Shown here: positions 3,119-61,710 of the stretch, piece after piece
Layout of the letters: every line of letters starts with the position of its first letter
Numbering within the stretch: the first letter of the stretch is position 1
Assembly: GCA_026770705.1 (NCBI GenBank)
Contig: JANJGN010000009.1
Coordinates: 164,362,001 to 164,426,000, forward strand
Direction of reading: 5' to 3'
Length of the DNA stretch: 64,000 bases
From: Isurus oxyrinchus
Taxonomy: Eukaryota
Translations under genes and position numbers: made by a program
The notes under the pieces: model-generated
Seen by the model: only the letters and a program-made list of their open reading frames with translations
What the model was told of the DNA's origin: nothing
The model's database searches: none

Positions 3119-3164
3119 CATTTACTACTGCTGGTCATGTTGTCAGAAAGGCTCAGAAAGGCAG
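3119..3164 (+). CDS. Gene A (CD300/pIgR-like inhibitory receptor): putative stalk exon (x)FTTAGHVVRKAQKG(R)
   Basis: AG at 3117-3118 (weak pyrimidine tract) and strong donor CAG|GTAAGT; phase 1 to 2, which matches the phase-2 start of the TM exon. Confidence 0.55.
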
Positions 3165-3521
3165 GTAAGTGAAAAAGAAAATCAGTGTTTTGTTTTTAAA
3201 TGGGTTGGGCTATTTCTCTAGGGTTTCGTTTACTGAGGTCTTGCTGAGAGGTGGGAATAGCCCTGCATGAATTTAATTCCATAATGGATTAGAAAGAACT
3301 GTGACATAGTTAGAATGTTAAAAATAGGAGACAGCGGAAGAGGGGCAAGAATTGATGGTGGGAAAAGGCATCAGTTGTCCTATGTTATCATCTGGAAGAT
3401 TCAACAGATTTTGAAATAAGTTGCATTATTGTGCATGTTAACATGTCCTGGACCACGTGTGGCTGATTACATTTGTCCCGATACTCATGTAATTTTTCAC
3501 TGTCTTTCATTAACCACCAAG

Positions 3522-3622
3522 ACTTTTCCTGACGCTTGGACTAATCTTTGGAATTTTGACGGTGATGCTTCTTGCACTTGTGATCCTAGTCATCAACAAA
3601 ATAAGGAAGCACAAATATAACG
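3522..3622 (+). CDS. Gene A transmembrane exon LFLTLGLIFGILTVMLLALVILVINKIRKHKYN
   Basis: AG acceptor at 3520-3521 and donor G|GTAAGT; uncharged hydrophobic stretch followed by basic stop-transfer residues; phase 2 to 1, as in the gene B TM exon; not in the ORF track. Confidence 0.9.
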
Positions 3623-4439
3623 GTAAGTTCTGAAATAAAACCAATTTTCCCACGCAACAAAATAAATCCATCTTTCAACCGAGTTAAACAAAAAAAAAAC
3701 CAACCACGTGATGCGGGGCGACCTTTACCGGATCGTGCCAGTTGAGCTCCCACCTACATAGGCATTTCAAGAGTATGTACCCTTTGTCAGGGCAGGAATC
3801 TCCTTGTATTTTCACTTCAACCTGGCACCAAGCTCAGTAGTGAGCCAACAGTGACGGTACTTCCTTTATCTCCTTGGAAGAATAGGAACTCTGTTGCAGT
3901 GTCCATTCAGCACAATATAATAGTGACAGGATTGCCAGTAACATTGTGGCAATTTGTATGTGGTACATAGCAATGTGTATTGTTTCTTGCTGATAATTTT
4001 AAAATGCTTGGGAGTCATTTTAGCAACACAAAGGTGATTTTATTTCTTAATTAAAAGGACCACTTGTCTGTATTTTCTCTATCTTTTGTGTGTGGAGAAA
4101 GAAGACATGTCCAGTTTGGTACTGGATAAAGAAGTGAAACAATTATAATTTCTCAAACAAATATCGAAAGCAAGATATATGAATGAGCTGTCAAATATCA
4201 AATGATCCCTTTGTAAATAGAACTACCAGTATTAAATTAGCCGATGGATCATCACATGCAGAATTGCTAGTAATTTACTGACTTGTTAGTACTATTCAGA
4301 GTTAGATTCCATTAGAATAATTGAATCAGGCAGATATTTCTCAAATCCAAGGACATACAGAAAACAAAAAGAGATTCTGTTTATACAGGCTTCTCTGTAC
4401 CCTGATACCCTGAGATACTTCACACTCAATGAACTATTT

Positions 4440-4550
4440 TTTTTTGAGTATGGCTGAAAAAAGAGACATGCTGTCAAAGCTTTTCATCTTGCACTCATCA
4501 GGACTAGATTCACAAGAATGCCAAATCTCAAAGGCGATAACAATTTATGT
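4440..4550 (-). ncRNA. Penelope-like repeat end with minimal hammerhead ribozyme motif (core 4472-4504)
   Basis: Minus strand reads GTC-CTGATGA-GTGCAAGAT-GAAA-AGCT-TT-GAC: hammerhead core boxes, palindromic stem III (AAGCTT) and GTC/GAC stem I. Confidence 0.6.
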
Positions 4551-5628
4551 CCTTGCAAACCTGTCCAGATGGGTGCAAGACAAAAATGTCTCTTCGACAG
4601 AACCTCTTTTTTTTTTAGCAATACTCCAGTTCTGTACTACCAAGTGGCTAATTCTTAAGTGCCATCATTATTGTTAAATAGGACAGGATGCTCAGCAAGG
4701 TCCTGCAAACTCCAAGTGAAACAAATGACCAGGTAAAGGGGCCAATTCCCATATTGTTAACACAAGCTAGTTCACCAGTGCAAATCTCACCAGATCGTAA
4801 TCTCTTGATGACACTCAATCTCTACAGCTCAGCCTTTTGTGCTGAATGACTTACAGTTCCAGGTGAAGATTAGGATGGGTGCAGCTTAGAATTCAAAGGG
4901 ATGTAGTCAATTAAAGGAAGTCACAGTTTAGCATGTCAGATATCCTTCCAACCATTGGAAAGGCTCAAAAAAATGCATCTTAATTGGTTTTACATCATTT
5001 ATCAAACCAACAGCAGGAGAGGATTGAAATATGAAAGGCATAAATTTGAGAATAGGTAACCCAGTACAACTGCAGATAAGTGATAGATCAATCCTCACCT
5101 GATTCCTTATTCTATGGTTACCAATATTAAGGTGACCTTGTATAAAGTGGGTGTGAGAAGGTTACAAATGGTTTACATTCCATGGCAGCCTTGCCATAAG
5201 TCAGCATTGTGCTATGCCTGGATGAAACTGGGAGCAGTTTAAGTCTACAATAAAAGTGAAGCCTGCAACTTAAGTTACAAGAATGTCATAGAGTCCATAT
5301 TTTTGCCTGTCAGCTTTTTGGGGCATTCTTATAGATGATATTGTGTCAGTTTTTGCTGGATTTCTGGATGGATACACGTGAAATTAATGTAAAATCTCTC
5401 CAATGGTTCAGTTGAATGACCAGTTCCCCACTCTAATTCTGCGGCGGAAATATCCAAGTATTGAATGAGGGTATGTAACATTTGCAGACAGGCAAGCATG
5501 TTTATTTTTGAAACCTTTGCAGCAACACTTATTTATTGTTATTCACAGTGAATTGCAGCAAGGCCACTGAGATTTGCGTGTAAGGGAACATCCATTTTTC
5601 TAACAGAGAGGGAGAAAAAAGAAACAAA

Positions 5629-7252: not shown

Positions 7253-7308
7253 ACAACAGAGAGAAGGAATCAACAATAGAAAATTCCATTCCGAAGTCAA
7301 ACTCTGTG
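7253..7308 (+). CDS. Gene A cytoplasmic exon (D)NREKESTIENSIPKSNSV
   Basis: TTTTTCAG acceptor and GTG|GTAAGG donor; 56 nt, phase 1 to 0, joining the TM exon to the terminal exon in frame; same size and phase as gene B exon 42216-42271. Confidence 0.85.
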
Positions 7309-9503: not shown

Positions 9504-9695
9504 TTGTCCAGAGTGTTGGAAGGAGGAGTTACTTATGCCACTGTGACAATTCAGCCCATCAATCACCCTCAGGAGGACTCCGCTACTTACAATAATGTGA
9601 AACCTTCCAACAGTCAGGAAGCAATCAAACCATCAGTTACCGAGCATCCTGCTTCAGAACCTACAGAGTATTCCACAGTTGTATTCAAAAAGTAA
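9504..9695 (+). CDS. Gene A terminal exon with ITIM (VTYATV), YxN/ITIM-like (ATYNNV) and ITSM (TEYSTV) motifs
   Basis: TTCTTTATCTACAG acceptor, phase 0, stop TAA at 9693-9695; tyrosine motifs typical of CD300a/CD300f-like inhibitory receptors. Confidence 0.9.
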   Translation: MSRVLEGGVTYATVTIQPINHPQEDSATYNNVKPSNSQEAIKPSVTEHPASEPTEYSTVVFKK

Positions 9696-15033: not shown

Positions 15034-15082
15034 ATGAAGAGCATTGAATTTACTATTGTCCTCATCACTCTTTCGTTATCAG
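15034..15082 (+). CDS. Gene B exon 1, signal peptide MKSIEFTIVLITLSLS(G)
   Basis: AACATG start, hydrophobic leader, donor CAG|GTAAGG in phase 1; GC/CACCC-type boxes about 100 bp upstream. Confidence 0.85.
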
Positions 15083-26658: not shown

Positions 26659-26906
26659 GTGGGGGGAATGGGGTGGGGGGGTGCGGGGGGTGGGGGGGGG
26701 GGGGCGGGGGGGGTGCGGGGGGTGGGGGGGGTGGGGTGGGGGGGGGTGCGGGGGGTGGGGGGGGTGGGGGGGGGTGGTGGTGCGGGTGGCGGGGGGTGGC
26801 GGTGTGGTGGGGGGGGTGGGGTGGGGGGGGGGTGGGGGGGTGCGGGGGTTGGGGGGGGTGGTGGGGGGGGGGGCGGGGTGGCGGTGTGGTGGGGGTGGGG
26901 GGGGTG
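26659..26906. repeat. About 250-bp G-rich low-complexity tract (potential G-quadruplex)
   Basis: Runs of G interrupted by T, TGC or C; the source of the spurious Gly/Pro-rich ORFs. Confidence 0.9.
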
Positions 26907-27258: not shown

Positions 27259-27951
27259 GGCCAGAATTTTTCCGTCGGCGAGTTGGGGGTGGGGCCCGCT
27301 GTCCGACGTGAAAATGATGCGGGTGGAACCCCCGACATCACCCCATCCCATTTAGATATTCAGGAAGGCGGGCGGACAGCGCAATCAGCTGTCCACCCGC
27401 CGACCTATCAATGGCCAATTGAGGCCATTGACAGGATAATTAAGATAATTAGAGACCCTGCCCGTCCAACCTTAAGGTTAGTGGGCAGGCCCAGCGGCTT
27501 CTGATAATACATGAAACCTCATCCACCGGCGGGATGAGGCTTCATGTCTGTTTTAAAAAACTTTAATAAACTTTATGTGATATTTATTAACATGTCCCAT
27601 CTGGTGTGACATAGTCACATGAGGGGGGCATGCTAATAATTTTTTTTATTTTTCTATTTTTTAAATTTATAAAACTTTCAGTGCTCTCCCTGAGACAGCA
27701 CTTAGCCTCAGGGAGCAGTGCGCTCTCTTGCCCGCATGCGTGAAAGAGCTCACTCTGACAGATGGGGAATCCCTCCCACCCCCTGCACAGGAAGGGCATA
27801 GCACTTCCTGTCGGGCGGCCCACTGGGCGGGGCCTTAATTGGCCCACCCACTCAAAATGGCGGCGGGGCCCGTTTCGGCGGCGGCGATTGGCTGCCCGCC
27901 CGCCACCGAGCCAGTGGGGCCCACCCACTCATCAAGGGCTAAATTCTGCCC
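27259..27951. mobile_element. PIF/Harbinger-type MITE
   Basis: TIRs GGCCAGAATTT/AAATTCTGCCC with TTT target duplication; close reverse-complement copy at 56196-56876. Confidence 0.85.
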
Positions 27952-31451: not shown

Positions 31452-34400
31452 TAGAGTAATTATTTATGTTAAGTATAGAAAGGATGGATGATATTATATG
31501 GAGTCATTAAGTAAATTAGGTTAATTAATTTAATTAATTTAAAGTGCATGCTAATGCCATCGTTCCTATCTATTCAGTCATTCCATTTGGATGTAAAGTA
31601 ATGTGCAATTTATATGAAGATATAGCCATTGTCAGGAACAATAACTACTCCTCACAGCATCAGTGTCATTTTAGTATGAATTCTGCAAAGGGATGTACCA
31701 CCATCAAATCTGCAACAATTTACAGCTAAACAGTAAGTTAATTTAACACTACTCACTTTGACACTCATCATCTATTTTGTATTTGAAGACTCCATTAAAA
31801 TACAAATGGTTTCTTAACTTTTCCTACTGAGGGGAAAGGCAACTTGTTGGGTCTACAATTCAATTTATAAAATGCAGGTAAATATTGCTGCAAGCCAGTG
31901 TATATAGGATCAATTTTAATTTCTAGCTTATTGTTGATGAGCCACACCGTCAACGCAAAGATGATTTTAAAAAGCCACATTCTCTTTTTTTTAATATAAA
32001 TGGACTGCAGCAAAGGTGGCTCACCACTACCTTCTCAAGGGCAATTAAGGGTGGGCAACAAATGCTGGCCTAGCCAGTGGCCCTCATCCAGTGAAAGAAT
32101 AAATAAAAAATAATAGTTCCTCGACGCAAATTTTTTTTTGCTCCCAAACAGTTAATGAACAGGGCATATATAAACCATAGGAGAAGTCTACAGCTACAGG
32201 ACACAAGAGCAGAAGAGTTCAATCTGCCAAGTATCATTGTTGGTCTCTTATGCCTGAATGGTGTCATAATGAAATTCAGGCTATTGTGCTGGTATGGCTG
32301 AGAGTTGCAAAGGACTGTGTAGTAGAAACAATAGAAACTGTTTTCAACTACATGCAATGTGGCAGGAAATAGAAATAAACTGTAGTAATTATAGTTTTGA
32401 TAAACATAGGACTGTAGCTTTAAGGATAATCCTGTGTAGTAAGATCACATAAATGGTGTAAACCAATGAGTTAGCAGCATGGGGAATCTCTAGAGGAATT
32501 CTTCTTTAGTTATGGAGTTAGAAGTACACATGTTGCAGCTGCTGCTGCTTTGTAAATAAAGATCAATGTTTCCACCAAGAAAATTTGCCTAGAAAATCAA
32601 CCCTATAACAAACTGGCGATGAGGATAAATCAGATCCGGTATTGTCCCTCGGCCAGTGATTGTGAGTGTTCTATGTTCATTAAAAAGAAAGGAAGAAATG
32701 CCACAGTTTGGCAGAATCGATCCCTTTGAACCAGCCACAGATGACTAGTCTCAATATATAGGACATCTTGCATTCTACTTTCAAGCCAACAAACTCACGG
32801 GGGGAGGAAAAGAAGAGAGCAATTCTCCTGAGTATTTGTGGGAGCAAGACCTACAGTTTAATTCAAAGCTTGACAGGCCCCAGTGCCCCTGATTTGAAGA
32901 TCTTCAGTGAATTAGTAGACCTGGTTAAGGAACATTTCGAACCCAAGCCCTCAGTCACAATGCAGAGGTCCAGGTTCAATTCACGGAAGAGAGCCCCAGG
33001 GGAACCATTGCTGCCTACGTGACAAAATTAAAACAACTACTGGAATATTGTGACTTCAGTGAAACCCTGAATGATATGCTCAGGGATGGTTTGGTCTGTA
33101 GTGTGCAAGACGATGCTACTCAGCGAAGATTGCTGGCTGAAGTGGATCTTGATTTTAAGAAAGCATTAGAAATAGCGCTTGCGATGGAAAGCACTGTAAG
33201 GTATTCACAAGCGATTCAAGGGGTGCAAAATGACGCCATTTTCTAGTTGGGTAGGAACAGTCAGTCAAAAGTGGCGTGAAAAGCCGGGACTCTGCGGTGA
33301 AACAGGAAACAGACCCCGTTAACCAAAAATTTAGACGAAACAGCTTAGCAGCAAATTCAAAAGCTAATTTTTATCAACGTGGAAACAAAGAGATTAAATT
33401 AAACTGGTCCTAAATCTTCCAGTTGTGAACAGGAGGACTGCCAGAGCTGCTAAAAAAAATGACACTGTCTTCCAGGAACTGGGGAAAATCAAAGGCCTAC
33501 AGGCCAAGGTTTATGTGGACCCAGAAGCAACCCCTCGCTTCTTGAAGCAAGACCGGTGCCATGCGCCCTGAGAGAGAAGGTTGATGCTGAGTTGAACCGG
33601 CTAGAGAGGCTGGGTGTCATAAAAGCAGTTCGGTTCTCAGAGTGAGCAGCACCCATAGACCTTGTACTAAAACTGGATCGGTTCTGTGGGAACTATAAAC
33701 TAATGGTCAACAAAGCAGCCAAACTGGACAAGTTCCATATTCCCAAGATTGAAGACGTCTATGCTAAACTAGCAGGAGGGATAACGAATACAAAGCTAGA
33801 TATGAGTCATGCATATCAGCAACTGGAACTGGAAGATGCCTCCCGAGAATTTGTGACCATAAACACTCACAAAGGGTTATATCAATACATATTCCTACCC
33901 TTCGGTGTTTCTTCAGCCTGTGCCATTTTTCAGAGGATGATGGAGAGCTTGCAACAAGGACTACCTCAAGTTGTGGCCTATCTGGATGATGTACTAATAA
34001 CTGGATTCTCATAAAAGGAACACTTGGCTAATCTAGAGGAAGTCCTGAAATGACTTTTAGAAGCAGGAGTGGCCTAAAGAAGGAAAAATGCACTTTTCAG
34101 GCAAATGAAATAATTTATTTGGGTCACCGGATAGAGGACCAAACGTTACACTCTGTTGAAGGGAAGGTTAAAGCTATCAGAGAGACACCTGCACCTAAGA
34201 GCATCTCTGAACTAAATCATTTTTAGGGATGGTAAATTATTATGGCTGGTTTCTACCAAATTTATCAATGGTTCTAGCCCCTCCACATTCACTGCTAAAG
34301 AAAAACCAGCGTTGGGTTTGGAAGTCACCCCAAGAAGAAGCCTTCATGAAAGTCAAACAGCTCTTGCACTCTTCAAATTTGTTAGTGCACTACAACCCAA

Positions 34401-36388
34401 CAAAGGAATTGGTGCTAACCTGCGATGCGTCTCTGGAGTGAGAGCAGTACTACCTCACAAGATAGATGACGACGTAGAGAGGCTGGGAGGCTATGTATCC
34501 AGGAACTTACCACAGCCAATAAAGGATATTCTCAGATTGAAAAGGTAGGTTTGTCGATTATTCTTGGTGTAAAAAAATTCCATCAATACGTGCATGGACA
34601 ACATTTCACGATAATATCAGGCCACAAACCATTTTGGTGCCTGTTTAGTGAGGAAAAGGCTATCCCTCCCAAAGCTTCTGCATGAATTCAAAGATGGGCC
34701 CTAACTTTGGCGGTATATGAATACACCTTTGTGCATAGGCCAGGGATTCATATAGCCAATGCCGATGCCCTAAGTCGCTTTCCTTTGCAAGAGAGCAATG
34801 ACCATGTCCCAATTCCCCAAGAGCTCATATTAGTGATGAATTTCCTGGGTTCCTCACCAGTCTGTGCCAGGTAGATAAGAAACTGGATGAATCCTGTCTC
34901 AAGTGAGAGACCAAGTGTTACATGGATGGTCCCAGGAACCCGTCTCTGGTGAATTGAAGCCATTTTTCAACCAAAGGCACGAAATGAGCAGTCAAGATGG
35001 TATTCTATTATGGAGGCCACAAGTAGTAGCTCCTTCACAAGGAAGGAAGCCAATCTTAGTTGAGTTACACAGCGACTACCCGGGAACCTCCAGAATGAAG
35101 ACAATAATGCAAAGTTATCTTTGGTGGCCAGGAATGGACGGTGATATTGAGAAGGTGGTAAAACACTATGTGCAATGCCAACAGCTACAAAGGTTGCCGG
35201 AGGCAGCCCCATGACGTCCATGGGAGTGAGCTTGTGGACCCTGGGTGAGATTGCACATAGATTACAGTGGTCCTTTTCTTGGAACCATGTTTCTACTGAA
35301 TACAGAGGCTCATTCCAAGTAGTTAGATGTTTACGAGGTTGAGTTGCCAACTTCATGCGCTAATATGGAAAACCTATGCCAAAGCTTTGCTGTCCATGGA
35401 TTGCCAGAGGTAATCGTCTCAGGTAATGGTACTGCATTTACTAGCACTGAATTTCAAAAGTCTGTCTGCCTGAATGGTATCAACTACATGAAGACTGCAC
35501 CATACCATCCATCATCTAACGGACTGGCAGAAAGAGCAGTACAAACTTTTAAGGCGGCAATGAAAAAGTTAACAGGTGAATCATTGGAAACTAAACTTGC
35601 TCGTTTCCTATTTCACTACAGAACAACCTCACGACCTGTGTAAATATTGTAATGTCATGAGATAAATATCCTCATAAATACAAAATGTTAAAGGGGGAGG
35701 AATGTAGTAACTATAGTTTTGATAAACGTAGGACTGTGGCTTTAAGAATAATCCCAGGTTGTAAAATCACATCATCTGTGTAAACCAATGAATTAGCAGC
35801 GTGGGGAACCTCTAGGAAAGAATTCTTCTTTAGTTATAGAGTTGGATGCACATATGTAGCTGCTGCTGCTGTCTTGTTAATAAAGTTCAATATTTCCACC
35901 AAGAAAAGTTGCCTGGAAAATCAACTCTATAATAAAGCATACATCACGGCCAGCAAGAACTATTACAAAATAACTTCTCAAACCCCTCAGCAGGAAAAGT
36001 TAAGAAACCATAAACATTTTAATGGGTTCTTCAAATAACAAATAGATGATGAATGTCAGTGATCGAAGTGAGTCGTGCTAAATCAGCTGAGTGTTTAGCT
36101 GTAAATTGTTGCAGATTTGATGGTGGTATTTCCCTTTGCAGAATTAATACTCAAATGACACTAATGCTGTGAGGAGTTATTGTTCCTGACAATGGTTACA
36201 TCCTCATGCAGATTGTACATTATCTTATATCCGAATGGAATGACTGAATAGATAAGAACGTTAACATTAGCATGGTAGCTTAAATTAGATAAATGAATTA
36301 ATTTAAATTTAATTAATGACCGAACAACATCAAAATGCATAAAAATGATAAAAGTTATCCTTTCTATATTTAACATAAATAGTTACTG
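31452..36388. mobile_element. Old long-TIR (foldback-like) element; arms about 31452-31834 and 35983-36388
   Basis: About 380-bp diverged inverted repeats, e.g. ACCACCATCAAATCTGCAACAATTTACAGCTAAACA vs TGTTTAGCTGTAAATTGTTGCAGATTTGATGGTGGT; the interior holds a Gypsy insertion. Confidence 0.7.
32381..35934 (+). mobile_element. Ty3/Gypsy LTR retrotransposon, degenerate, both LTRs present
   Basis: LTRs 32381-32610 and 35703-35934 (TGTAG...TATAACA/TATAATA), PBS TGGCGATGAGG, PPT AAAGGGGGAGGAA; gag, RT (LPFGVSSA, YLDD), RNase H (CDAS) and integrase (PYHPSSNGLAERAVQT) with stops and frameshifts. Confidence 0.95.
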
Positions 36389-36869: not shown

Positions 36870-36930
36870 CTCTTACAACAACAACACTGCCCAATGAACT
36901 TCAGAAAGTAATCACCTGGGAAAATGAAAG
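36870..36930 (+). CDS. Gene B exon 4, stalk (P)LTTTTLPNELQKVITWENE(S)
   Basis: Long pyrimidine tract plus TTACAG acceptor and AAG|GTAACT donor; phase 1 to 2 links D2 to the TM exon; Thr-rich. Confidence 0.88.
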
Positions 36931-40520: not shown

Positions 40521-40630
40521 CACCTCAAATTTTTCCATAGTACTAGTCGTACCGGTGCTCGGAGTTTTGATTGTACTGATCCTTGTTGCTACTATTTATG
40601 TCGCAAGATGCAGAAAGAAAACTGCAGCTG
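40521..40630 (+). CDS. Gene B exon 5, transmembrane TSNFSIVLVVPVLGVLIVLILVATIYVARCRKKTAA
   Basis: TTTTCTTCCTCTTCACAG acceptor and G|GTGAGT donor, phase 2 to 1; uncharged TM plus basic residues. Confidence 0.92.
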
Positions 40631-40850: not shown

Positions 40851-41059
40851 TAATTTAGAGGTACAAATTTGATCGAGATGAAGTAGGATCTTGCAGGTCA
40901 GAGTACAAGTGCTACCTGTTTCTCCTTCCGCTATAGAAGAGTATAAAATAAACTCTGAGTGGCCACTGGCTAGTCACAGGCTCCTGAGAAGCCTAACTAA
41001 CCTGGGTCAACTGCCACATAGGGCAGAGTCTAGTACCAATGCTTGATGCAAAGAAAAAT

Positions 41060-42215: not shown

Positions 42216-42271
42216 GTGAGAAAGGATCAACACAAACAAAGCAAGAACCTAACCCAGTCTATAATGATCTG
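42216..42271 (+). CDS. Gene B exon 6, cytoplasmic (G)EKGSTQTKQEPNPVYNDL
   Basis: TTTTTAG acceptor and CTG|GTAAGA donor; 56 nt, phase 1 to 0; contains YxxL. Confidence 0.88.
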
Positions 42272-43052
42272 GTAAGAATTTCATAAAGCAAATTATCTTA
42301 CATCCAACATCTACCTATCCTCATTTCAAATGCCAGTTTATTTATGGTCAGAAAACTAAATAAGCCAGTTATCTGTGTACAAAAGCAAAATATTGCAGGT
42401 GCTGGACATTTTAAATAGAGAGACGAAGTCCAGGAAATGTTCAACAGGTCTGGCAGCATCTGTAATGAGAGAATCATAGTTGATATTTCACATCCATGAC
42501 TTTTCATCAAAACTGGAAAAAGTTAGAGATGTAACAGGTATTAAGTAGGTGCAAAGTGGGAGGTGAAAAGAGCAAAAGAGAAGGCCTGTGACAGGGTGCA
42601 AGGCAGGAGAGATTAAATGACAAAATAGGTGATGGTGCAAGGTGAAAAGAAATGATGTGGGATGAGTGAAGGAACTCAAGATGGATCTAGAGGAGGTGTA
42701 AATGCAAAAAGCAGAATGATAACCAACAGTTGCCTTCCAAAAAAATGGGGTCAGAGGTTCTGGTCTGAAATTGTTGAACTCAGTGTTGAGTCCAGAAAAC
42801 TGTAAAGTGCCTATTTGGAAGATAAGGTGCATGTTCTTTGAACTTCATTGAGTTTAGGAGGCAGAGTACAGAGAGATAAGAGTGGGAGCAGTAAAATGGA
42901 AGGCATCCAGAAGCTTAGGGTCACACCTACAGACCGAACAGAAGTGATTCCAAAGCAAAAACAGAAAATGCTGGAAAAACTCAGCAGGCCTAGCAGCATA
43001 TGTGGAAAGAGAAACAGAATTAAGGTTTCGAGTCCATATGACACTTCTTCAG

Positions 43053-45512
43053 AGGGATGGCTCTTCGGGGAGAAGGGTTACCTGTCGAGGACATGGCTGA
43101 TGACACCTGTGCAGCGGCCTCAGGCTGCAGCAGTGCAACAATATAATAAGACTCATGCTGCAGCTCGCAACTTGGTGGAGCAGATTATCGGGATGCTGAC
43201 GATGAGGTTCCAGTGCCTGGACCGGTCCGGTGGAGCCCCTGCAATACAGTCCACAGAGGGTGTCACACATCGTCGTCGTCTGCTGTGCCCTTTACAACCT
43301 GGCCCTCCAACGGGGAGATGAGCCGACTGAGGAGAAGATGCAGGAGCTGCACGGGCACGAGGGTCAGGCAGTCCTCAGAGGCGACGATGACAGGGATGAG
43401 GCCCTGGCACTGGTTAGAGGCAGGTGTGCTCAGGAGGCCCTCATAGATGCTAGATTTGTGGACGATGATGACAACATGCAGTGAGTTGACCCCATAGATC
43501 CTCACATCGTACCTGTGAACATTTGACATCAGTCTGGCTTATGGCAACGTGAATACCCTCTGTGATAATACACCTGTCATGGAGATGCAGTGGAGGCCCT
43601 AATAGCTGTTCGATTGCAGGAGGATGATGATGACATGCAGTGAGGACACTCCATAAATCTTCACATAGTCTCTGCGAATGTCTGATTCCTGTGTGGACGA
43701 GGGCAGCTCTCTTGTGCTCTGTGATCAGTGTCATGTCATAGAGACACAGCCATGAACCTTTGTTAGCCTTCAGCACCTGACCCCCTTCAGGAGCTCAACG
43801 TCACTCGTCACAGATGCTGAAGAGATGGGGGGTCAGCCCCTCCTTAAAGGTGCTGAGAGCACACGGAGAGAATGAGGGAACTCTGTGCCACCTGCCCACT
43901 ACATTCTGGCAGCAATGACCAGCACCATCAAGGTGCAGGCATCAGTAATGTTTCCAGGGACTGTGAGGCTGGACCATCACTTTGGTCTGCAGGTTGCACG
44001 GACACAGGGAAAAGGCCCTGGACTGAGACACCTGCCTTTATATTGCACAGAAAGGCTTCACATCTGAGCAACATGAACAGTGCTCATCAGAACAAGGAGC
44101 CATTGGCAGGGAGACATTCTTAGAAGTTCATTGACAATAGTGAACAGTATGTACAAGTGACTAATACCTATGCCCAGGCTGTGCAACTAATTCTCCTTAA
44201 TTATCCTAACCCTGCCTTGATGATCCCCGGATATCCACAGCAGAGGTGGAGGCAGCCTGCAGACTGCGACACCCTGTCTGTGATGACCTTGGCGGGCGTC
44301 CTTGGGAGGGCTGAGACTTGGCGGACCCCGGCCCTGCTTTCGGCAGTGGCCCCCCCCCCTCCTCAGCCTGTGGAGCTGGAGCTGCTGAGGTCACAGGAAG
44401 ATCAGAGTTGGATGGGCCGGACACTCTCGGAGTCACCTGGGTGGATGGCCCCAGGTTGTGCACCTGCTGATCCTCCTCCCTATGGGTGCCCGGGGGCCCC
44501 AGGCTGACTCCTTGAGGAACGTGGGTAGTTGGAGTGAGATCGAGATGCCCCGCACCCCTCTCGCATTGACATTGTTGGAAGCCAACTATGGCATCAACGA
44601 TGGAGTTGAGCCTGCGCAGCAGTGCAGGAGAGAAGTCCTGGAAGGTCTCCATGGTGGCCACGATCCTACCAGCATTGACCTCGGTGTGTTGGCATGCCCA
44701 CGCTAACACCTCAGACTGAAGGCAGACAGACCCCTCCATCATGCCATGCAATCTGAGGAGTGTAGCGGACATCCCTTCCTGATGTTCCCCAGCTTGCCTT
44801 TGCAGTTCCAGCAACCGTGACATGACCGAGTCCAGAGGCTCATCATCTGACTCGGACTCAGCAACATTCTGGCCTCCAGCAGTCCTCTGAGTGCCAGACG
44901 TCTGGGAGGTCCCGGCCTCCACTTGCTGTGGATCAGACAGTGTGACGTGCTCACCAGATTGTGATCCCGGAGCTATTCTAAAGCTAGGTCCCACTGAGGT
45001 GTGTGTCTCTGCGCTGGCAGAGGCTGTGGGTGAGCTCTGTGATGGGACTTCAGGGAGAGTGTCTCAAGATTCCTCTTCAGAGGTTTTATCGGGGCTTGAT
45101 TGGAGGTCCTGAGTCGTGGACTCGGTCGGCTGTTTGGCAGATGTGCCTGTGGAAGCAAGGAGAGATGATTAGTGCCTGGCCATGTCTTCCGTGCAGCAGT
45201 GATGGTCTGGAAGCACTGGGATGTGTGCTTGCAGCTGGACTTTAACCATGGCGCCTGGTGTGATGCAGCGGCGAGGTGATGGTGGGTGGGTGAATGAGAG
45301 CCCGCCCGCATTGGAAACAGTGTGTTACCCGGGAGTGCACAAATAATGTGGCAGGTTTGGGCCGAGACTTGGCGGACCCCGGCCCTGCTTTCAGCAGCGG
45401 CCCCCTCCTCAGCCTGTGGAGCCGGAGCTGCTGAGGTCAGAGGAAGATGGGAGCTGGATGGGCCGGACACTCTCGGAGTCACCTGGATGGTCACCATCGC
45501 GGCCGGCGGGTA
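43053..45512. mobile_element. PIF/Harbinger transposon fragment: HARBI1-like DDE transposase C-terminus (+, about 43053-43484) and convergent second-gene remnant (-)
   Basis: WLFGEKGY..RTWLMTPV..P......YNKTHAAARNLVEQIIGML..RFQCL, frameshifting to LQYSPQRVSHIVVVCCALYNL; internal direct repeat at about 44310-44445 / 45360-45490. Confidence 0.85.
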
Positions 45513-45527
45513 GAACGTCATTTGCAG

Positions 45528-45581
45528 AAGCGAAACATGGCATTGGCTTCAACAGCTGATAATTTCTCTAATTCTGATAAG
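45528..45581 (+). CDS. Gene B exon 7 (possibly a cassette exon) KRNMALASTADNFSNSDK
   Basis: TTTGCAG acceptor and strong donor AAG|GTGAGT; 54 nt, phase 0/0, open reading frame. Confidence 0.65.
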
Positions 45582-46091: not shown

Positions 46092-46217
46092 CCTTTCAGA
46101 GATGAAGACCAAGATATCCGATATGACATGGAAACAAGCAAATGCAGCTTCCACTCAGCAGACTTTCCTGCTTGTATTTATGGCAAACAGCAGTATGAAC
46201 CAAAGGAGCCTGTCTAA
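46092..46217 (+). CDS. Gene B terminal exon PFRDEDQDIRYDMETSKCSFHSADFPACIYGKQQYEPKEPV*
   Basis: CTTTTTAAAAG acceptor, phase 0, open to TAA 46215-46217; AATAAA at about 46491 and 46779; a nearby alternative AG would give an immediate stop. Confidence 0.65.
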   Translation, partial: PFRDEDQDIRYDMETSKCSFHSADFPACIYGKQQYEPKEPV

Positions 46218-48324: not shown

Positions 48325-49071
48325 CTGTGTGTGTGTGTCACGGTGTTTGTGTGGAAATGTGCGTATGTGTGTGTGTGCAAGTGTGTGCATGTGTGTGCGT
48401 GTGCATGTGCGTGTGTATATGTGTGTGCGCGTGTGTGCGTGTTTGTGTGTGCACGTGTGTGTGTGTGAGCATATGTGCACGCGTGTGTATGTGTGTGCGC
48501 GTGAGCGTGGGCATCTCTGTGTGTGTGTATGTGTGTGTACACGAGCGCGGGGGTGTGTGTATTTGTGTGTATGTATGTGAGTGTGTGTCTGTGTGTGCAT
48601 GGGGATGTCTGTGTGTAGTGTGTGCACAGGAGTGCGTGTATGTNNNNNNNNNNNNNNNNNNNNNNNNNNNNNNNNNNNNNNNNNNNNNNNNNNNNNNNNN
48701 NNNNNNNNNNNNNNNNNNNNNNNNNNNNNNNNNNNNNNNNNNNNNNNNNNNNNNNNNNNNNNNNNNNNNNNNNNNNNNNNNNNNNNNNNNNNNNNNNNNN
48801 NNNNNNNNNNNNNNNNNNNNNNNNNNNNNGTGTATGTGTGCGGGCATGTGTGTGTATATGCGTNNNNNNNNNNNNNNNNNNNNNNNNNNNNNNNNNNNNN
48901 NNNNNNNNNNNNNNNNNNNNNNNNNNNNNNNNNNNNNNNNNNNNNNNNNNNNNNNNNNNNNNNNNNNNNNNNNNNNNNNNNNNNNNNNNNNNNNNNNNNN
49001 NNNNNNNNNNNNNNNNNNNNNNNNNNNNNNNNNNNNNNNNNNNNNNNNNNNNNNNNNNNNNNNNNNNNNNN
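48325..49071. repeat. Imperfect (TG)n microsatellite with assembly gaps (N)
   Basis: Directly visible. Confidence 0.95.
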
Positions 49072-52209: not shown

Positions 52210-55200
52210 TGTGATATTGTTTTATCATGTTGACAAGACGCAGCCAATAGAAGAGTGGCGCAGGCTAGCTCTGTGGTCAGTAGTCTATAGTTAGAACCAG
52301 TAGTGTAGAGACAGGGTTTTTGAGTTGAAAGCACACAAGTGTAGCTGCTGAGTTCCTTTATAAATAAACAGAATGTGTTCTACCTGAGAACTGTCTGCTG
52401 ACCTACTCTCTCTATTGTACCAAGTTGGCCATCCCAAAATAAGCATCCAACCGGGATACATAAGCCCAAACAAACTGGCGACTAGGATCCGACAAACTGG
52501 CAACCAGGAAAAAGCAAGAAAAAAGTGAGGAAAAAGCAAAGGTAAAATAAATTACTTTTGAGAATAAAACAAGTTAATGAAAGAAATCAACAGAAAGAAA
52601 ATCGGGCTGTACCTCGTACGGCAATTGAAAGTAGAATTTCCGTCCTAATCGTCGAAGTAGAATGCCGCAATCCAGCCATGGACAATTGGTCTCATTATAT
52701 TGAACATTCTTTTTCTAAGCAAACGACATTGCGGGGGAAGAGAAGAGGCGAGCGATCCTCATATCCACACATGGGAGTAAAACCTATGGATTGATTTGAA
52801 GCTTGACAGCACAGGTGCCTTGATTTGAAAAGTTTTGAGGAACTAGCGGACCTCATAAAGCATCACTACCAGCAAAAGCCCTCGCTAACAATGCAATGGT
52901 TCAAATTTAACTCAAGAGATAGAGCCTCGGGGGGAGACAGTTGCTTGTTATATGGCAAGTTTGAAACAGTTAACAGAACATTGTGAGTTTGGTACACCTT
53001 TAAATGACATGCTTAGAGATTGTTTAGTGTGCGGTGTGAATGAGAACACGATTCAGAAGAGATAATTGTCTGAAACAAATTTGGATTTTATGAAGGCCCA
53101 GAGATAGCACTGGCCATGGAAAGTGCATTAAGGGATTGGAAAGCCATAAAGTGAGTGCAAAATGGCGCCATCCTCCACATTGGGCAGGAAGCCCCAGCCA
53201 AAAAGGGCGCGAAAATGCAAGGCTCCACCGAGAAGCGGGAAATAGCAGACAAATAATAATAAATGACTTAGCAGAGAAAACATGGAATAATGGCAATGGA
53301 GGTGGAAGCAGACAACCTTATACTGATTGGCAATTTTAAAAAATCGAATACTTTTATTGTCATCAAAACAGACACCTTCTGAGACAGTGTAAGGAAAGAA
53401 TCAGGCAGACTTTCAAACAAAAGAAAAAACCCCATGAGATCTACAATGTAGAAGAGCCTGAAGTAACAGATTCAGATACTTATTCATTGTATAACTTGGA
53501 GGTTGGGAAAACAGAACCAATCTATGTAACAATGAAGGTAAATGACAGATCTATTAGAATAGGAGCTTCCACTACAATGATTGGTGAACACACCTCGAAA
53601 TATCTGAACATAATTAAATTTGGAAGAAACAGTTGCAAATTGAGAACTTACATGGGTGAAGACATCCAAGTCAAAGGCATAAGCAGAATTACTGTCAATT
53701 ACAGAAGCCAATCAGCAAAGCTACAAAGTTTGTATTGACAGGCAGAGGACCAAGCGTACTAGGGTGAAACTGGCTGAGGGAAATCAACCTTGATTTGTCA
53801 CAGAGATTCTAAAAGGAAGCTGAAAACATTCCTGTTTTGGAAAAGGCGTGTGTAAAGACCCAACAACCTAAAGAAATGCAGGATTTTTCCATCAAAGGCA
53901 TGGTAGGACAGCAAAAAGAAATAGGAAAGACCGTCCTGAGGGACAGAGTCCGGGTTAAGGTGAGCAACCTCCAAAAGAAAAGTGAAAACCTACTGACGGA
54001 CCTTCACACACAACCAGTTTCCCTCCTGTCTAAGCATGTACCTCTGGAAAAGAAACAGAAAGAGTTCTACACTTCTCTGAGTGAAATGAAGGATGAGTTG
54101 GCAGCGAAGACCCAACAATGTTTAATTTTCCAGGAGGCAGTACGCCAATGCAAGAAAGAGATGGAAGAGCTGAAGAAACAGCTGTATGAAGCTAAAGAGG
54201 CTTTGAGACAAAAGTTGCATAATTTTCCAAGAATCAGGCAAATGATAAAATTCTGGGAAACTCAACCACTGAGTTCACTCAAGACGAGCTTGCCTCTGAG
54301 AGTAGACTGGCCAATAGGGAAGTCGAAAAGAAGACCGAGAATAAAGTCAGTGTCAGAAAGAAGAAAACCCATAACAAGAAGACACAGAAACACAAATAAT
54401 ACTGTTGATCCTGGCAGCGTATGAGTATGCTTTCATCCTTAGGCCTGGAAATCAAATTGCAAACATTGATGCACTGAGTTGTTTGCCCTTACAAGGAAAA
54501 GGTGTAGATGTTCCAGTTCTACAAGAGCTATTTTTATTGTTGAGCTTTTTAGATTCATCACCGGTATGTGCGAGACAGATCAGAGCCTGGACAAGTCGGG
54601 ACCCAGTCTTATCCAAAGTACAAGAACAAGTTCTTCGTGGTTGGTCACAAGAACAGGAATCTGACGAAAGTCACAGCCAGGATGGTATCTTATTGTGGGG
54701 AACACAAGCGATTGTTCCTCCAAAAGGAAGAAAGCCATTGTTAATTGAACTACATAGCACACATTCAGGAATTTTCTGAATGAAGACCTTAGCACACAGC
54801 TATCTATGGTGGCCTGGGATGAATGGGGAAATAGAGAATTTAGTGAAGAATTGTGTGCAATGTCAGAAAGTTCAAAAGTTACCTCCAACAGTTCCGTTAC
54901 ACCCTTGGGAGTGGCCAGGAAAGCCAGACAACATCTGGAAAGGAGGTTCCTGACAAAGCATCTGAAGCTGTAGAACTGAGATGTTCCACAGGCATAAGGA
55001 AACCCCCAGAAAGACTGAATTTGTAAATTACTTATCTGCGTAAATAATTTGGTATTTTGAGAAAATTATAATTGTAACTGTAAAATGTATTTCTGAGTAA
55101 AGGGGGAGGGATCTGGTAATCTGCTGTGTAATATACCTTTAAGAAGAACGTTATGGTGGAAGATCACATGATCTTAGTATCCACTAGAAGAGTACCACGG

Positions 55201-55425
55201 GCTACCTCTGTGATCAGTAGTCTATAGTTAGAGTCAGTAGTGTAGGGTCAGGGTTTGAGTTGTAAGCACAAAAGCGTAGCTGCTGAATACCTTTGTAAAT
55301 AAACAGAATGTGTTCACCTAAGAAATGTCTCCTGACCTACTCTGCCTATTGTACCAACTTGGCCAATCCAAAATAAGCGTGCAACCCAGATCCAAAAGTC
55401 CCAACAAACCAGTGACTAGGATCCA
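52210..55425 (+). mobile_element. Non-autonomous Gypsy derivative (LTR-gag-protease-[coiled-coil]-RNase H end/integrase start-LTR)
   Basis: LTR copies at about 52210-52472 and 55112-55405, PBS TGGCGACTAGGATCC, PPT AAAGGGGGAGGGA; gag and integrase N-terminus are homologous to the 32381 element; RT is absent. Confidence 0.85.
53813..54399 (+). pseudogene. Coiled-coil, Lys-rich ORF replacing RT inside the Gypsy derivative
   Basis: ORF 53837-54424 (LSEMKDELAAKTQQ..EAVRQCKKEMEELKKQLYEAKEALRQKL) is in the same frame as the protease end; an alternative frame from about 54223 ends RKKKTHNKKTQKHK* at 54397-54399. Confidence 0.55.
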
Positions 55426-56195
55426 ACAATAGTCTAATGTACATTCCAGAGGAATTCAATTAGTCCGTGTTATTGGTTTTAGAACAGGTAATTGTATTTT
55501 GATGTCTCATTTTAGAAACATTTGCAATGTTTCAGGATAGTGTAAAGCCAACAGGAGATGGAGTCTTTCACACCTCCCAGGGTGTCTGTTCTGTTTCATC
55601 CCACTTGGTGGAATGCAGGTTTATATATTGTAGCCATCTGGCAATCCTCCATTGCTTTTAGAGGGTTTTGGTTTATTTTTTAAAATCCAACCAGAAAAGG
55701 AAAAAATATAAATTGTATCTTTAAAAAAAAGAGGCAAATCCTCATAACAGCTGCCACTTTTCTGTTTTCATGTCAGCAGAGCAGTTTTTTTTTCAAAGCA
55801 AATAGGAACTCCCTCCCTAACAGCACTGTGGATGTACCTGCACCACAGGGACTGCAGCGGTTCAAGAAGGCAGCTCCACCACCGCCTTCTCAAGGGCAAT
55901 TAAGGTTGGGCAATAAATGCTGGCCCAGCCAGCGAAGCCAAAATCCCGTGAATGAATAATTTTTTTTTAAATGCTGGAAATCTGAAACAAAACCAGTAGA
56001 TGCTGGAAATACGCAGCAGGTCAGGCTGTATCTGTGGAGAGAGAAAGAGAGTTAACATTTCAGGTCGATGGTGTTCTGATGAAGGGCTGTTGACCTCACG
56101 CATTACCTTTTGCTCTCCAAAAATGCTGCCTGACCTGCTGAGCATTTCCAATGTTTTCTGTTTTGAGAAAACATATGGAAGAATTGTGAATGTGT

Positions 56196-56876
56196 GGGTG
56201 GAATTTTGCCCTTGATGGGCGGGCGGGCCCCACCGACTCGGAGGAGGGCGGGCAGCCAATCGCTGCCACCGAAATGGGCCCTGTCGCCATTTTAAGTGGG
56301 CGGGCCAATTAAGGCCCCACCCAGTGTAACGCCCAGCGGGAAGCACTATGCTTTTCCTGTGCAGGGGGGGTGGGTTCCCCAACTGCCAGAGTGCGCTCTT
56401 TCACACATGCGCAGGTTAGAGCGCACATCTCCCTGAGGCTAAGTGCTGCCTCAGGGAGACCACTGACAGTTTTTGAAAGTTTAAAAATAGAAAAATAAAA
56501 AAATTAATAACATGCCCCCCTCATGTGACAATGTCACATGAGGTGGGACATGTTAATAAATATCACAGAAACTTTATTAAAGTTTTTAAAACAGACGTGA
56601 AACCTCATCCCGCCGGTGGATGAGGTTTCATGTTTTTTCTATTGCCCGCTGGGGTCCTGGCCTGCCCAGGGACAGGGTCTTTAATTGTTTTAATTATCCT
56701 GTCAATGGCCTCAATTGGCCATTGACAGGTCGGCGGGTGGACAGCTGATCGCCTTCCTGAATATTTAAATGGGGCGGGGTGATGTCGGGGGGGTCCCCCC
56801 CCCAACATCATCCTGCATCACTTTCGCATCGGCAAGCAGGCCCCACCCCCAACACGCTGACAGAAATATTCTGCCC
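56196..56876. mobile_element. PIF/Harbinger-type MITE (inverted copy of 27259-27951)
   Basis: TIRs GGGTGGAATTT / ATATTCTGCCC with TGT target duplication. Confidence 0.85.
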
Positions 56877-58625: not shown

Positions 58626-58908
58626 AGTTGATTAAAATGTGAAAATGAAGCAGATTGCTCCACTTTGCTTTTTAATCTCTTGAATGATATGGAGGGTAAA
58701 AGCCCCAAACTACTTAGAATAACATCCCAGTCCATTAGTTAGTTGAGAGCGCAGATTCAGCTTCTGCAGCTGGCACCAGACCTCCTCCTTATTGTGAAAG
58801 TCCAGCTCAGTACCAGCTCAGAGCTGATAATGTCTTGAACAAGGGAGTCACCTAGACGAATACAACATAAGGAACCAACTGATTCAAACACAGCGCAGCT
58901 GAATTACA

Positions 58909-58993
58909 ATGTCCAAACACAGTGAATTCGTCTACTCGAGAGAGTCCAGAGCATGGAAATTGGTTGCTCTTTTGATTGTTCTATCTGTGCCAA
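58909..58993 (+). CDS. Gene C leader exon copy 1: MSKHSEFVYSRESRAWKLVALLIVLSVP
   Basis: ACAATG start, hydrophobic C-terminal half, donor A|GTAAGT in phase 1; 85 nt; paralogous to 61626-61710. Confidence 0.65.
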
Positions 58994-60232
58994 GTAAGTC
59001 TACTCTTTAAAATCTTGTTCTTTAGTGTTATTAAGAAGTACTTTTATAAACAAAGCTAATGAAGACCAGAAACTTTGATGGATTCAATCGCCAGGGGTTC
59101 TGTTGTGGTGAGCTAAAGATGAACCATTCATGGTCTTGCAAGACGTTATGATATCCATCTGCTTTTTCAGCATCTTCACATAGGGGGCATGTTTAATTAC
59201 ATTTTTACTCCATTTATTTAATAATTTCAAAAGCCCTTCAATTTCCCTGAAGCAGCTCCGTGTCTCAGGGAGATTGAAGCGCTCTTTCGTGCGCATGCTG
59301 ACCTGGCTCTCTCTCTCCTCCCCCCGCCCGCACAGGTAGCACTGAGCACTACAGCTGTGTCTTACACTGGGCAGGCTTTAAGTGGCCCACCCGCGTAAAA
59401 TGGCAGCGCAGAGCCACTCGCGGACCGCCCGCTCCCATCGAGCCTGCCCGCCAGCTGAAAAATTTTCGCCTTAAAGCTTTGCAATTGCTTCACTCAGCAA
59501 CATGCCTGTTAATTAGAATACAAGAATATAATTTTCAGCTTTCTTAGGACCAAAGATGAAAATGCTTTTGGAAAATTAAATCCTCCAAAGAAATTGGGGA
59601 AAAAATGACAAATTGACAACGTTAGGCCCATTAACTTCTATGATTAGCTCAACCGGCTGACACAAATCACCCTTCTAGTCGGAAAGTGGGGAAAAATCAT
59701 CTTCACAAGTCATAAGGAATTCCATTCTGGGAGGTAAGGTAGCGATGGACAATGATTTTGGATGGAATTTTGATTGGACAGTTATTTTCCTCTTGATGTA
59801 ACAATCTTCTTCAATGCCACTTTTCTGTTGCCATGTGGATTAATTCAGCAGGGGAAGGTTTTTTTTTGCAAATGCATGAGAGAACCTATAGTGTCAATGT
59901 ATCGGTGGGGGACAGAAGGAGGGGAGGGAAGGAAGCGGGGAGAGAAGGGGGAGGGGGAGAGTCAGGAGGAGGAGGGAGGGGCAAGGATGGTGAGGGCGGA
60001 GACTGAAGAGCTGCCTTGCGAATAAACCAACTTGAAGTAAAAGACCAGCTTTGGACTCATTCTTCCATGACAAGCACTTATTGTGATTAACATTTAAAAC
60101 TGTGAATGTATAAGGGTTTAAAACAGCAGTGTATTAGAGTTTACCATAAATATGCCTAAAAGTGAAATAGATTGCTCTGCTTTTTATCCACAGCTCTTCT
60201 GGAGGTAAATGCCCAAAAGATGTACAATGACC

Positions 60233-61430
60233 TAAGATATAGGAGCAAGACTAGACTGTATGGCTGTATGACTGTTGAGCCAGCTCTGCCATTCAATTTG
60301 AACACGGCGGGTCTTGAGCTTAATCTCCACTTCCCTGCCCATTCCCTATAGCCTCGATTCCCTGAAAGACCAAAAATCTCTCTATTCTGCCTTAAATATA
60401 TTCAATGTTGGAGCATTCACAATACGCTGGGTTAGAGAATTCCAAAGATTCACGACCCTTGGAGTGAATTAACTTTTCCTCCTCTCAGTCCTAAATGATT
60501 AGTCCCTTATCCTGAGTCTGTGCCCGTGTTTTAGATTCACCGAAAAGTGGAGACAATCTCTCAGCTTCTACCCTATCAAACCCCTTCAGAATCTTGTACA
60601 TTTCAATGAGATTGCCTCTCATTCTTCTAAACACCAGAGAAGATAGACCCAGTTTGCTCAGCCTCTCATTATAGAACAACCCCAGGGACCAATTTAGTGA
60701 ACCAATTTGCTGCACAGCCTCCAAAGTAAGTATATCTATTAACTGTGGGGGCTAAAACTGCACACAGTATTCCAGATGTGGTCTCACCAAAACCCAGTAC
60801 AACTCTAGCAAGACTTATTTATTACGGTACTCCAATCCCCTTGCAATAAAGGGTAAGTATCTGTAAGTTAACTTTTTGTGTTCCTTTGTACAAGCACACC
60901 CAATTCTCTTTGAATATCTTTTTTTTTGCAAAAATATACTTTATTCATAAATCTTCAAAAACATTTTGAACCATTTCAAAATCACCATTACAAAAGTACA
61001 ATCAGGTTCAACTGTTACAACATGAATCACAAAGTGTATCAGTACAAACAATGAATATCAACACTTACAAATTTATCATCGTTTAAAAAGTATTAAGCTC
61101 TTCCATTCTTTCAACCAAAGTGATTAACTTCACACTTTCCCACATTATAATCCATCTGCCATCTTGTTGCCCACTCACTTAGCCTGTCTATATCCCCTTG
61201 CAGCTTCTCTGTGTACTCCCCACAGCTTAACTTTCCACCTAACTTTGTATAATCTGCAAACTTAAATACATTGCTCTCTGCCTCTTCAACTAAGTCATTA
61301 ATATGCATTGTAAGTAACTGAGGCCCCAACACTGACCCTGTGGCACTCCACTATTCAGTGCCTGCCAACCTGAAAACGTCCCATTTATGCCCAATCTCTG
61401 CTTCCTATCTATTAACCAATACTCTATCCA
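60233..61430 (-). mobile_element. CR1 LINE RT fragment
   Basis: LGPQLL, KFADYTKLGG, WQMDYNVGKC, RRMRGNLIEMYKIL. Confidence 0.85.
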
Positions 61431-61560
61431 GAATATATATACCTATTTAGAATAACAACCCAGCTCTTTGGTCGGGATGGAGAGCACAGATGCATCTTCT
61501 GCAGCTGATCCCTTTTCCTCTTTGTGGAAGAAGAACTGGTCAATTCAACTGCAGTATGAA

Positions 61561-61570
61561 GAAGGAAGTG
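61561..61570 (+). promoter_or_regulatory. Candidate ETS/PU.1 site upstream of leader copy 2
   Basis: GAAGGAAGTG about 55 bp upstream of ATG 61626; absent at the aligned position of copy 1. Confidence 0.4.
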
Positions 61571-61625
61571 ACAAATACAGCACAGAGATCCAACTGATTC
61601 AAGCACAGCGCAGCTAAAAAAAACT

Positions 61626-61710
61626 ATGTGTGGGCACCGCATCTTCACTCACCAGAAGCAAGCCAGAACAATGGAATTAATTGCTCTTTTGATTCTTATA
61701 TCTGGTTCAA
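61626..61710 (+). CDS. Gene C leader exon copy 2: MCGHRIFTHQKQARTMELIALLILISGS (in-frame second ATG at 61671)
   Basis: ACAATGG strong-context second ATG, hydrophobic leader, donor A|GTAAGT in phase 1; no downstream Ig exon within the window. Confidence 0.7.

Follow-up and report, generated by a model that had tools for sequence, protein, structure and literature searches.

We report that a 64,000-nt stretch of the Isurus oxyrinchus genome (NCBI GenBank assembly GCA_026770705.1, contig JANJGN010000009.1, positions 164,362,001 to 164,426,000; the window, numbered here from its first letter) carries genes that are, with very little doubt, CD300-like receptors in both family and anatomy, and that the locus is likely the 5′ part of an old chondrichthyan CD300-like cluster in the order A, B, C (activating), C (inhibitory). 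Three gene units lie on the + strand (Table 1): gene A, of which only the 3′ half is present, gene B, which is complete, and gene C, represented by its leader exon only. Judged from sequence, A and B keep the residues of the Ca2+/phospholipid pocket of CD300lf, which C lacks, and are old single lineages. An earlier reading made from the letters of the window alone (the sequence-only reading) had proposed three same-strand units of the CD300/pIgR superfamily in a cartilaginous fish, with A and B paralogous, their signalling tails divergent and their database annotation at best generic; each of these proposals is borne out below, whereas its picture of A and B as a diversifying complex and its stalk exon for A had to be given up.

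Three homologue searches yielded 14, 13 and 158 proteins, with 120 listed from the last, and the orthologues come from sharks, rays and a chimaera. Both variable (V) domains of gene B, V1 and V2, and that of P0015, the white shark orthologue of A named 'CMRF35-like molecule 1', are V-set domains by Pfam. Multi-domain pIgR tops the PDB lists only through summed domains, and scores are compared here per single domain. On this basis the best match is mouse CD300lf, to which B V1 scores 89.6 bits, compared with 47.7 for pIgR D1, 42.8 for NKp44, 28.2 for FcmR and 25.9 for TLT-1 (the best of any domain in the three pIgR chains shown being 53.2 bits). B V2 scores 58.2 bits to CD300lf against 40.2, and a profile of A scores 86-89 bits against 48-55 for single pIgR domains; no V domain was found to be closest to FCMR, TREM/TLT or NKp44 (25-47 bits, compared with 86-90 for CD300lf). 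The upstream Ig exon of A is thus not from an unrelated family, which would have undone the sequence-only reading, as the V-set domain of P0015 has CD300lf as its best solved relative. Predicted models (predicted local distance difference test, pLDDT, 88 for B V1; 66 for A overall and ~90 for its V domain) place CD300lf/IREM-1 within the top 10 Foldseek matches of both B V1 and A, with fold-match identities for B V1 of 44-45% to CD300lf, 32% to trout pIgR, 31% to pIgR D1 and 28% to FcmR; TREM2 reaches 21-23% in the fold comparison. The second disulfide, Cx7C, is present in 12/12 A, 10/10 B V1 and 11/11 B V2 domains and kept in only 10/18 C domains. Gene A (P0015) and most C genes have a single V domain, and B has two. 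Neighbours in the Atlas belong only to clusters automatically named CMRF35-like and pIgR-like, and a 50%-cluster search gave 3370 matches, the best 150 of them unnamed and mostly multi-domain. The sawshark orthologue of A (P0019) is named 'TMIGD3-like' in UniRef, TMIGD3 being a CD300-like V gene beside ADORA3; as a lead from this UniRef name only, A may represent the TMIGD3 lineage, a name absent from the results of both Atlas searches.

The cleft of mouse CD300lf that holds Ca2+ and phosphocholine is formed by Tyr34, Cys36-Cys44, Gln41, Arg42, Trp89, Gly96, Asp98 and Met100 (PMC6166816; this and the later citations draw on excerpts, save PMC10707392 and PMC11372145, cited for their supplements). 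We mapped these positions by residue offsets from the published CD300lf numbering. In B V1 the Tyr, both Cys, the Gly, the Asp and the Met are present in 10/10 orthologues and the Trp in 9/10; in B V2 the Gly, Asp and Met are each present in 10/11, with Lys or Arg at position 42 in 10/11; and in A Tyr34, both Cys and the Trp are found in 12/12, Arg42 in 10/12 and the Asp, one residue later, in 12/12. None of the C domains (0/18) has Tyr34, Asp or Met at the pocket offsets, and Met100 occurs in 0/33 other domains. Several observations weigh against a conserved pocket: the Asp98 offset is also Asp in 6/33 of those other domains, the CDR3-like loop (complementarity-determining region 3) of A is one residue longer and Gly96 and Met100 occur there in 0/12, the Arg of B V1 stands one position early (Arg42 in 0/10), and the assignment was made by offset alone, from sequence only, with no ligand-bound model. 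With these set against the retained residues, we lean slightly towards lipid sensing by A and B.

The V-domain phylogeny that the sequence-only reading had proposed as a check was built from 103 V domains of 45 named non-human proteins plus the two of the window, less 21 redundant ones, giving 84 rows and 109 columns under LG+G4, with few columns and long-branch warnings. It recovered A (100/95; 12 rows, sharks and rays), B with V1 and V2 together (97/98; 21 rows, sharks, a stingray and the chimaera Callorhinchus) and C (100/99; 18 rows) as separate supported clades, apart from the pIgR/FCAMR-like domains. The term 'CD300-like' describes similarity scores and not a clade, which counts against a strict family assignment, as the tree holds no named mammalian CD300 sequence, none being among the matches listed; a single clade of A, B and C was neither shown nor rejected (approximately unbiased test, p-AU 0.249). 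Mean V identity is 62-68% within the A, B and C groups and 32-40% between them, with 26-41% between the V domains of A and B. Each species among the matches listed has a single A lineage and a single B lineage, the sole extra A-like copy being a truncated Chiloscyllium punctatum model (P0026). Two or three of the units apparently share one contig in 7 species, and the gene order A, B, C comes from fused models and locus numbers. Because A and B each form one orthologue group and share only 26-41% identity in their V domains, the divergence of their tails is ancient; each being a single supported group across sharks, with rays also in A and a ray and a chimaera in B, they do not make the diversifying complex that had been suggested. 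Internal duplications of V exons were seen in single lineages: V2 of B is doubled in Scyliorhinus torazame and Hemitrygon has two near-identical B-type domains (P0029-P0032, P0041 and P0002 being lineage-specific V-exon duplications), and Narcine has up to five C-type domains. A caecilian protein (P0027) shares the two tail motifs of A and is sister to A short of full support (91/82 and 89/92, not starred), so gene A may be older than the split between sharks and bony fish.

In these comparisons only the C-type genes, most of which lie outside the window, have undergone lineage-specific duplication, and they occur as activating/inhibitory pairs. An inhibitory C is accompanied by a C form with an Arg in its transmembrane (TM) segment and a short tail in horn shark, catshark and white shark alike; the V domains of the two forms are 95% identical in horn shark, 85% in catshark and identical at 106/108 positions in white shark, compared with 62-63% between species. 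The activating members lie outside the window, beyond the gene C leader. The white shark model P0028, which begins like that leader, has a first unit ending in an Arg-bearing TM segment, and the gene C of the window is probably of the activating type; it tells against this assignment that it depends on P0028, a chimeric model.

The tail of A carries an immunoreceptor tyrosine-based inhibitory motif (ITIM), VTYATV, and a switch motif (ITSM), TEYSTV, as the sequence-only reading had recognised, together with a YxN site, YNNV, that it had missed. Among orthologues of A the first ITIM and a terminal YST[VI] are each present in 12/12, a strict ITSM at the terminal site in 7/12 and the middle YxN in 6/12; inhibitory C genes have two ITIMs and a YxN in 11/11. 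The tail of B in the window has NPVYNDL and three non-canonical tyrosines, and a motif scan of it found no ITIM or ITSM. The YNDL and the non-canonical tyrosines had thus been read correctly from the letters, although YNDL is not conserved among B orthologues. Where A has its first ITIM, B reads I-x-Y-D-[MVI], without the +3 hydrophobic residue, in 9/9 sharks; the site is missing in the stingray, and the chimaera B has YSTV at this position and a terminal FSTL. Given that the chimaera keeps YSTV, that the sharks have IxYD[MVI] and that the first Tyr is codon 11 in the terminal exons of both A and B, the B tail is best explained as an inhibitory tail that has decayed and been truncated. The putative endocytic motifs are poorly kept among orthologues (NPxY in 5/11, YxxPhi at the YNDL site in 6/11), which speaks against their importance, so an endocytic role of this tail is only weakly suggested. 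In all species compared (6/6) the tail of A (78-90%) is more conserved than its V domain (61-70%), and the V domains of B (66-82%) are more conserved than its tail (50-60%).

The two genes share a TM exon of phase 2-1, a 56-nt exon of phase 1-0 and a phase-0 terminal exon; the phase 1-2 stalk exon, which the sequence-only reading had counted in this shared architecture, was seen in B only. Together with these exon phases, paralogy of A and B is supported by their terminal exons, in which 21 of the first 45 nt are identical, a value reached by 15/10000 shuffles. The 56-nt exons are identical at 23/56 positions (469/10000 shuffles, a weak signal). A profile of the A tail scores B tails weakly (1.2 bits for B in the window, 11.9 for the chimaera), a point against homology of the tails, which consequently leans on alignment and exon position. 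A phase 1-2 stalk exon, a phase 2-1 TM exon, a short phase 1-0 exon and a phase-0 last exon are also found in PIGR and in CD300A/LF, so the architecture marks the superfamily and not one family.

The window is repeat-rich, CpG-poor vertebrate DNA with 43% G+C and two short N runs, and its gene models were corrected against orthologues. The three exons of A translate to 116/116 residues of P0015. The leader, V and stalk exons of A are upstream of the window, and the stalk plausibly lies just before position 1, since the stalk-TM intron of gene B is 3.6 kb. The exon that the sequence-only reading had placed at the start of A as its stalk (3119-3164) is rejected in that role: its peptide is in 0/11 orthologues, where the stalk is in every case short and terminates in K[EQ]RL, and a six-frame search of the window did not find the stalk peptide of white shark (best score 24, compared with 55 for itself). 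The donor of this exon is perfect, with the top score among 15 donors, and open phase 1-2 exons of this kind number 1 per strand. Its acceptor is weak (8/15 pyrimidines, compared with 10-14 in supported exons); given the perfect donor but weak acceptor and the peptide's absence from orthologues, it can be no more than a cryptic exon or a rare alternative one. Isoforms of gene A in rays use a 72-nt cytoplasmic cassette exon, which is read through in the horn shark model; the copy in the window has two in-frame stops and no GT at the expected end.

Gene B has seven exons, all bounded by AG/GT, which join to 1056 nt and 351 aa with zero internal stops, 92% identical over 351 aa to basking shark P0001. 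Other last exons considered for it (acceptors 46051 and 46100; a mini-exon at 45556-45581) were set aside, as orthologues favour 46092. A six-frame scan of the window with a shark V-domain profile found only the two V exons of B and no V exon of gene C, and no further V exons or V relics were found in the window. Within the duplicated promoter and leader of gene C, 58909-58993 is an open 85-nt leader-like exon whose donor is intact and which no V exon follows; it may be either a relic or a first exon in alternative use. An 11-nt mini-exon at 60194-60204 was rejected, its phases being incompatible and white shark P0028 lacking such residues. Rfam gave 0 matches in the window, and the stretch contains no flanking gene to compare with the RAB37 (17q25) or IL10/FCAMR neighbourhoods.

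Table 1 Exons and related features of genes A, B and C in the window
Feature	Positions	Strand	Basis
Claimed gene A stalk exon; cryptic or rare alternative exon at most	3119..3164	+	Absent from orthologues; weak acceptor
Gene A transmembrane exon, phase 2-1, uncharged TM	3522..3622	+	100% to P0015; TM scan
Dead copy of gene A 72-nt cytoplasmic cassette exon	4857..4928	+	tblastn of ray and horn shark isoforms
Gene A 56-nt cytoplasmic exon, phase 1-0	7253..7308	+	P0015 match
Gene A terminal exon, phase 0: ITIM VTYATV, YxN site YNNV, ITSM TEYSTV	9504..9695	+	P0015 match, motif scan
Gene B leader exon, signal peptide, phase 1	15034..15082	+	
Gene B V1 exon, V-set, Cx7C, CD300lf pocket residues	24036..24365	+	Pfam V-set E 2.8e-16; PDB; pocket count
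Gene B V2 exon, V-set, Cx7C, pocket residues	28589..28912	+	Pfam V-set E 8.9e-14; pocket count
Gene B stalk exon, phase 1-2	36870..36930	+	
Gene B transmembrane exon, phase 2-1, uncharged TM	40521..40630	+	TM scan
Gene B 56-nt cytoplasmic exon, phase 1-0, with NPVYNDL	42216..42271	+	
Gene B terminal exon, phase 0: IRYDM at the decayed ITIM position; truncated compared with A and C	46092..46217	+	Orthologues
Old duplicate (68% DNA identity) of gene C promoter and leader	58710..59178	+	Repeat comparison
Gene C leader exon, phase 1; remainder of gene beyond window	61626..61710	+	27/28 residues = start of white shark P0028

Other readings of these genes account for part of the evidence. Gene B has two V domains, as does teleost pIgR (PMC4786434), it lacks an ITIM, databases name it pIgR-like and its ectodomain is better conserved than its tail, all of which would suit a shark polymeric-Ig receptor or Fc-alpha/mu-like antibody receptor that transports or captures IgM/IgW via a tyrosine sorting motif. 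The CDR1-like loop of B V1 has an Asn and an Arg in register with Asn30 (7/10) and Arg31 (8/10) of pIgR D1, whose CDR1 residues contact the J chain (PMC7707832), and forcing B together with pIgR D1 in a 38-row tree cost 11.2 log units and was not rejected (p-AU 0.126). However, His32 and Arg34 of pIgR D1 are found in 0/10 B V1 orthologues, B falls outside pIgR/FCAMR D1 in both trees, with a starred branch parting all shark domains from pIgR D1-D4 and the FCAMR-like domains, and B is nearer to CD300lf than to any pIgR domain, with the pocket residues kept. The shark 'pIgR-like' models with 3-4 domains are fusions, and B has two V exons rather than the four or five of tetrapods. In addition, the C-terminal region of the shark J chain is poorly conserved, casting doubt on mammal-like transport (PMC4279169), and no pIgR/CMRF35 entry is present in the shark skin proteomics supplement of PMC10707392. 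We consider an antibody receptor improbable, and give the same low weight to a broader proposal in which the cluster would preserve the ancestral state before the CD300/pIgR split, and the two-domain B, found from chimaera to white shark, with its ITIMs lost and a CD300lf-like scaffold bearing a CDR1 that partly resembles that of pIgR D1, would be the missing polymeric Ig receptor of cartilaginous fish.

It is somewhat less improbable, while still unlikely, that A, B and C all bind variable protein or microbial ligands, the whole cluster diversifying under pathogens and the pocket being kept for folding only. The lower conservation of the A V domain relative to its tail fits such a view, as do the B-type duplicates in Scyliorhinus torazame and Hemitrygon and the C-type ones in Narcine, and the mouse CD300lf pocket is itself exploited by a virus (PMC6166816). 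Against it stand the single A and single B lineage per species among the matches listed, save the truncated P0026, and a surface Asp that never varies in A or B V1 but has been lost in C, whose domains fold in its absence. A different question is raised by eight database models, seven of them named 'pIgR-like', that fuse neighbouring genes and have an internal TM segment or tail and mostly a second signal peptide; P0028 joins two C genes in this way. Such models combine A and B in 5 species, B and C in 2 and C and C in 1, with the internal signal peptide in frame in 7/8, and in the window the stop codon of A, in its terminal exon, overlaps a cryptic GT donor. If these were real read-through transcripts, they would yield two-membrane-span or signal-peptidase-cleaved polyproteins. 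Yet the fusion linkers, 6 to 69 residues long, come from untranslated sequence, the window has only 9 open codons upstream of the B ATG with no acceptor among them, A occurs alone in 8 species, both forms are annotated in C. punctatum, and the fused pair varies by species. Genuine read-through is highly improbable, and the multi-domain appearance of shark 'pIgR-like' proteins is for the most part an artefact of fused models.

Under the preferred reading of a CD300-like cluster, A would be a single-V inhibitory receptor for phospholipid head groups of the phosphatidylserine or phosphatidylcholine type, on dying cells or lipid particles, and would bind them, as in mouse CD300lf, in a cleft that lies between the CC′ and CDR3-like loops and is bridged by Ca2+. 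Clustering by ligand would lead to phosphorylation of its ITIM and terminal ITSM/ITIM, recruitment of SHP-1/2 and damped leukocyte activation. Gene B, with two tandem copies of the pocket, would gain avidity, its inhibitory motifs having decayed in the shark lineage, and might bind lipid-bearing cargo and capture it or take it up, or else serve as a decoy, in each case with no SHP signal; the acidic tyrosine site that it retains could be a Src-family substrate. We put an uptake role of B forward tentatively, as somewhat doubtful. In the C-type genes the pocket would have been lost and the loops become variable, and near-identical activating/inhibitory pairs are the usual pattern of pathogen-driven paired receptors; activating C proteins, with their TM arginine and short tail, presumably would signal through an FcR-gamma-like adaptor.

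The likeness to CD300f/CD300lf (CLM-1, IREM-1) and CD300a lies in the V-set domain with Cx7C, the top sequence and structure match and the pocket residues. Unlike CD300, B has two V domains and no ITIM, and A differs in its very short stalk and its longer CDR3-like loop. Mammalian CD300 genes likewise include activating partners with a charged TM residue, clustered with ITIM members; activating C proteins carry an Arg near the outer TM end, whereas CD300 activators use Lys or Glu in the TM segment. The motif set of CD300f (ITIM, YxN and a terminal ITSM/ITIM) is also present in gene A and inhibitory C (PMC7247439, PMC4415817). With tetrapod pIgR, FCAMR and FCMR the cluster shares the V-domain superfamily, but compared with tetrapod pIgR, B is without the D1-type CDR1 (His32, Arg34), has 2 rather than 4-5 domains, does not group with D1 and scores lower. 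Teleost PIGRL, NILT and CMRF35-like clusters are similar in their tandem V-domain receptors and paired tails; they are large recent expansions (25 copies in zebrafish, PMC4016189), whereas the shark cluster here is small, with two stable genes. Bowfin P0091 ('polymeric immunoglobulin receptor') has two V domains, with an Arg-Trp TM segment and a short tail as in shark activating C.

Several repeats lie among these genes. The V2-stalk intron of gene B holds a decayed long terminal repeat (LTR) retrotransposon (32381-35936, + strand) with terminal repeats 85% identical and fragments of reverse transcriptase and integrase, and a related decayed element lies at about 52244-55429. A decayed DDE_Tnp_4 transposon, which we take to be Harbinger-type, occupies 42842-45550 in the last intron of gene B, with a nuclease fragment on the + strand and long open reading frames on the - strand. 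Two inverted dispersed repeat pairs were found, one at 27259-27946 and 56201-56876 (81% identity) and one at 31455-31834 and 35983-36387 (79%), the latter flanking the LTR retrotransposon. The assembly is less reliable at a long G-rich run (26670-26906) and at a TG microsatellite (48326-49071) with N gaps at 48644-48829 and 48864-49071.

In databases these genes are named CMRF35-like or pIgR-like, the generic annotation that had been expected, and a literature search of titles and listings found no publication describing this cluster. PIGR homologues were reported absent from sharks as of 2014 (PMC4016189), and orthology among such V-domain families is described as eroded and hard to assign (bioRxiv 10.1101/2022.04.21.489081). 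The available portions of PMC9321927, PMC7956327 and PMC10768021 hold nothing bearing on the cluster, and no CMRF35/CD300 entries are present in the supplements of PMC10707392 or, as far as examined, in those of PMC11372145, which list only zebrafish pigrl2.3. Automatic annotation already covers the genes and such clusters are expected in vertebrates, which makes their presence a modest surprise; new here are the corrected gene models, the conserved CD300lf-type pocket residues, the apparently decayed B tail and the recognition of fused database entries. A 2021 paper on the Xenopus Fc-alpha/mu receptor and pIgR evolution may already discuss these genes.

For the oldest antibody-bearing lineage, the cluster offers a clean set of CD300/pIgR-superfamily genes that lends itself to testing, and the shark 'polymeric immunoglobulin receptor-like' fusions are unsuitable for citation as a multi-domain shark pIgR. 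If A and B do bind lipids, CD300-type phospholipid sensing would date to the first jawed vertebrates and would precede antibody transport.

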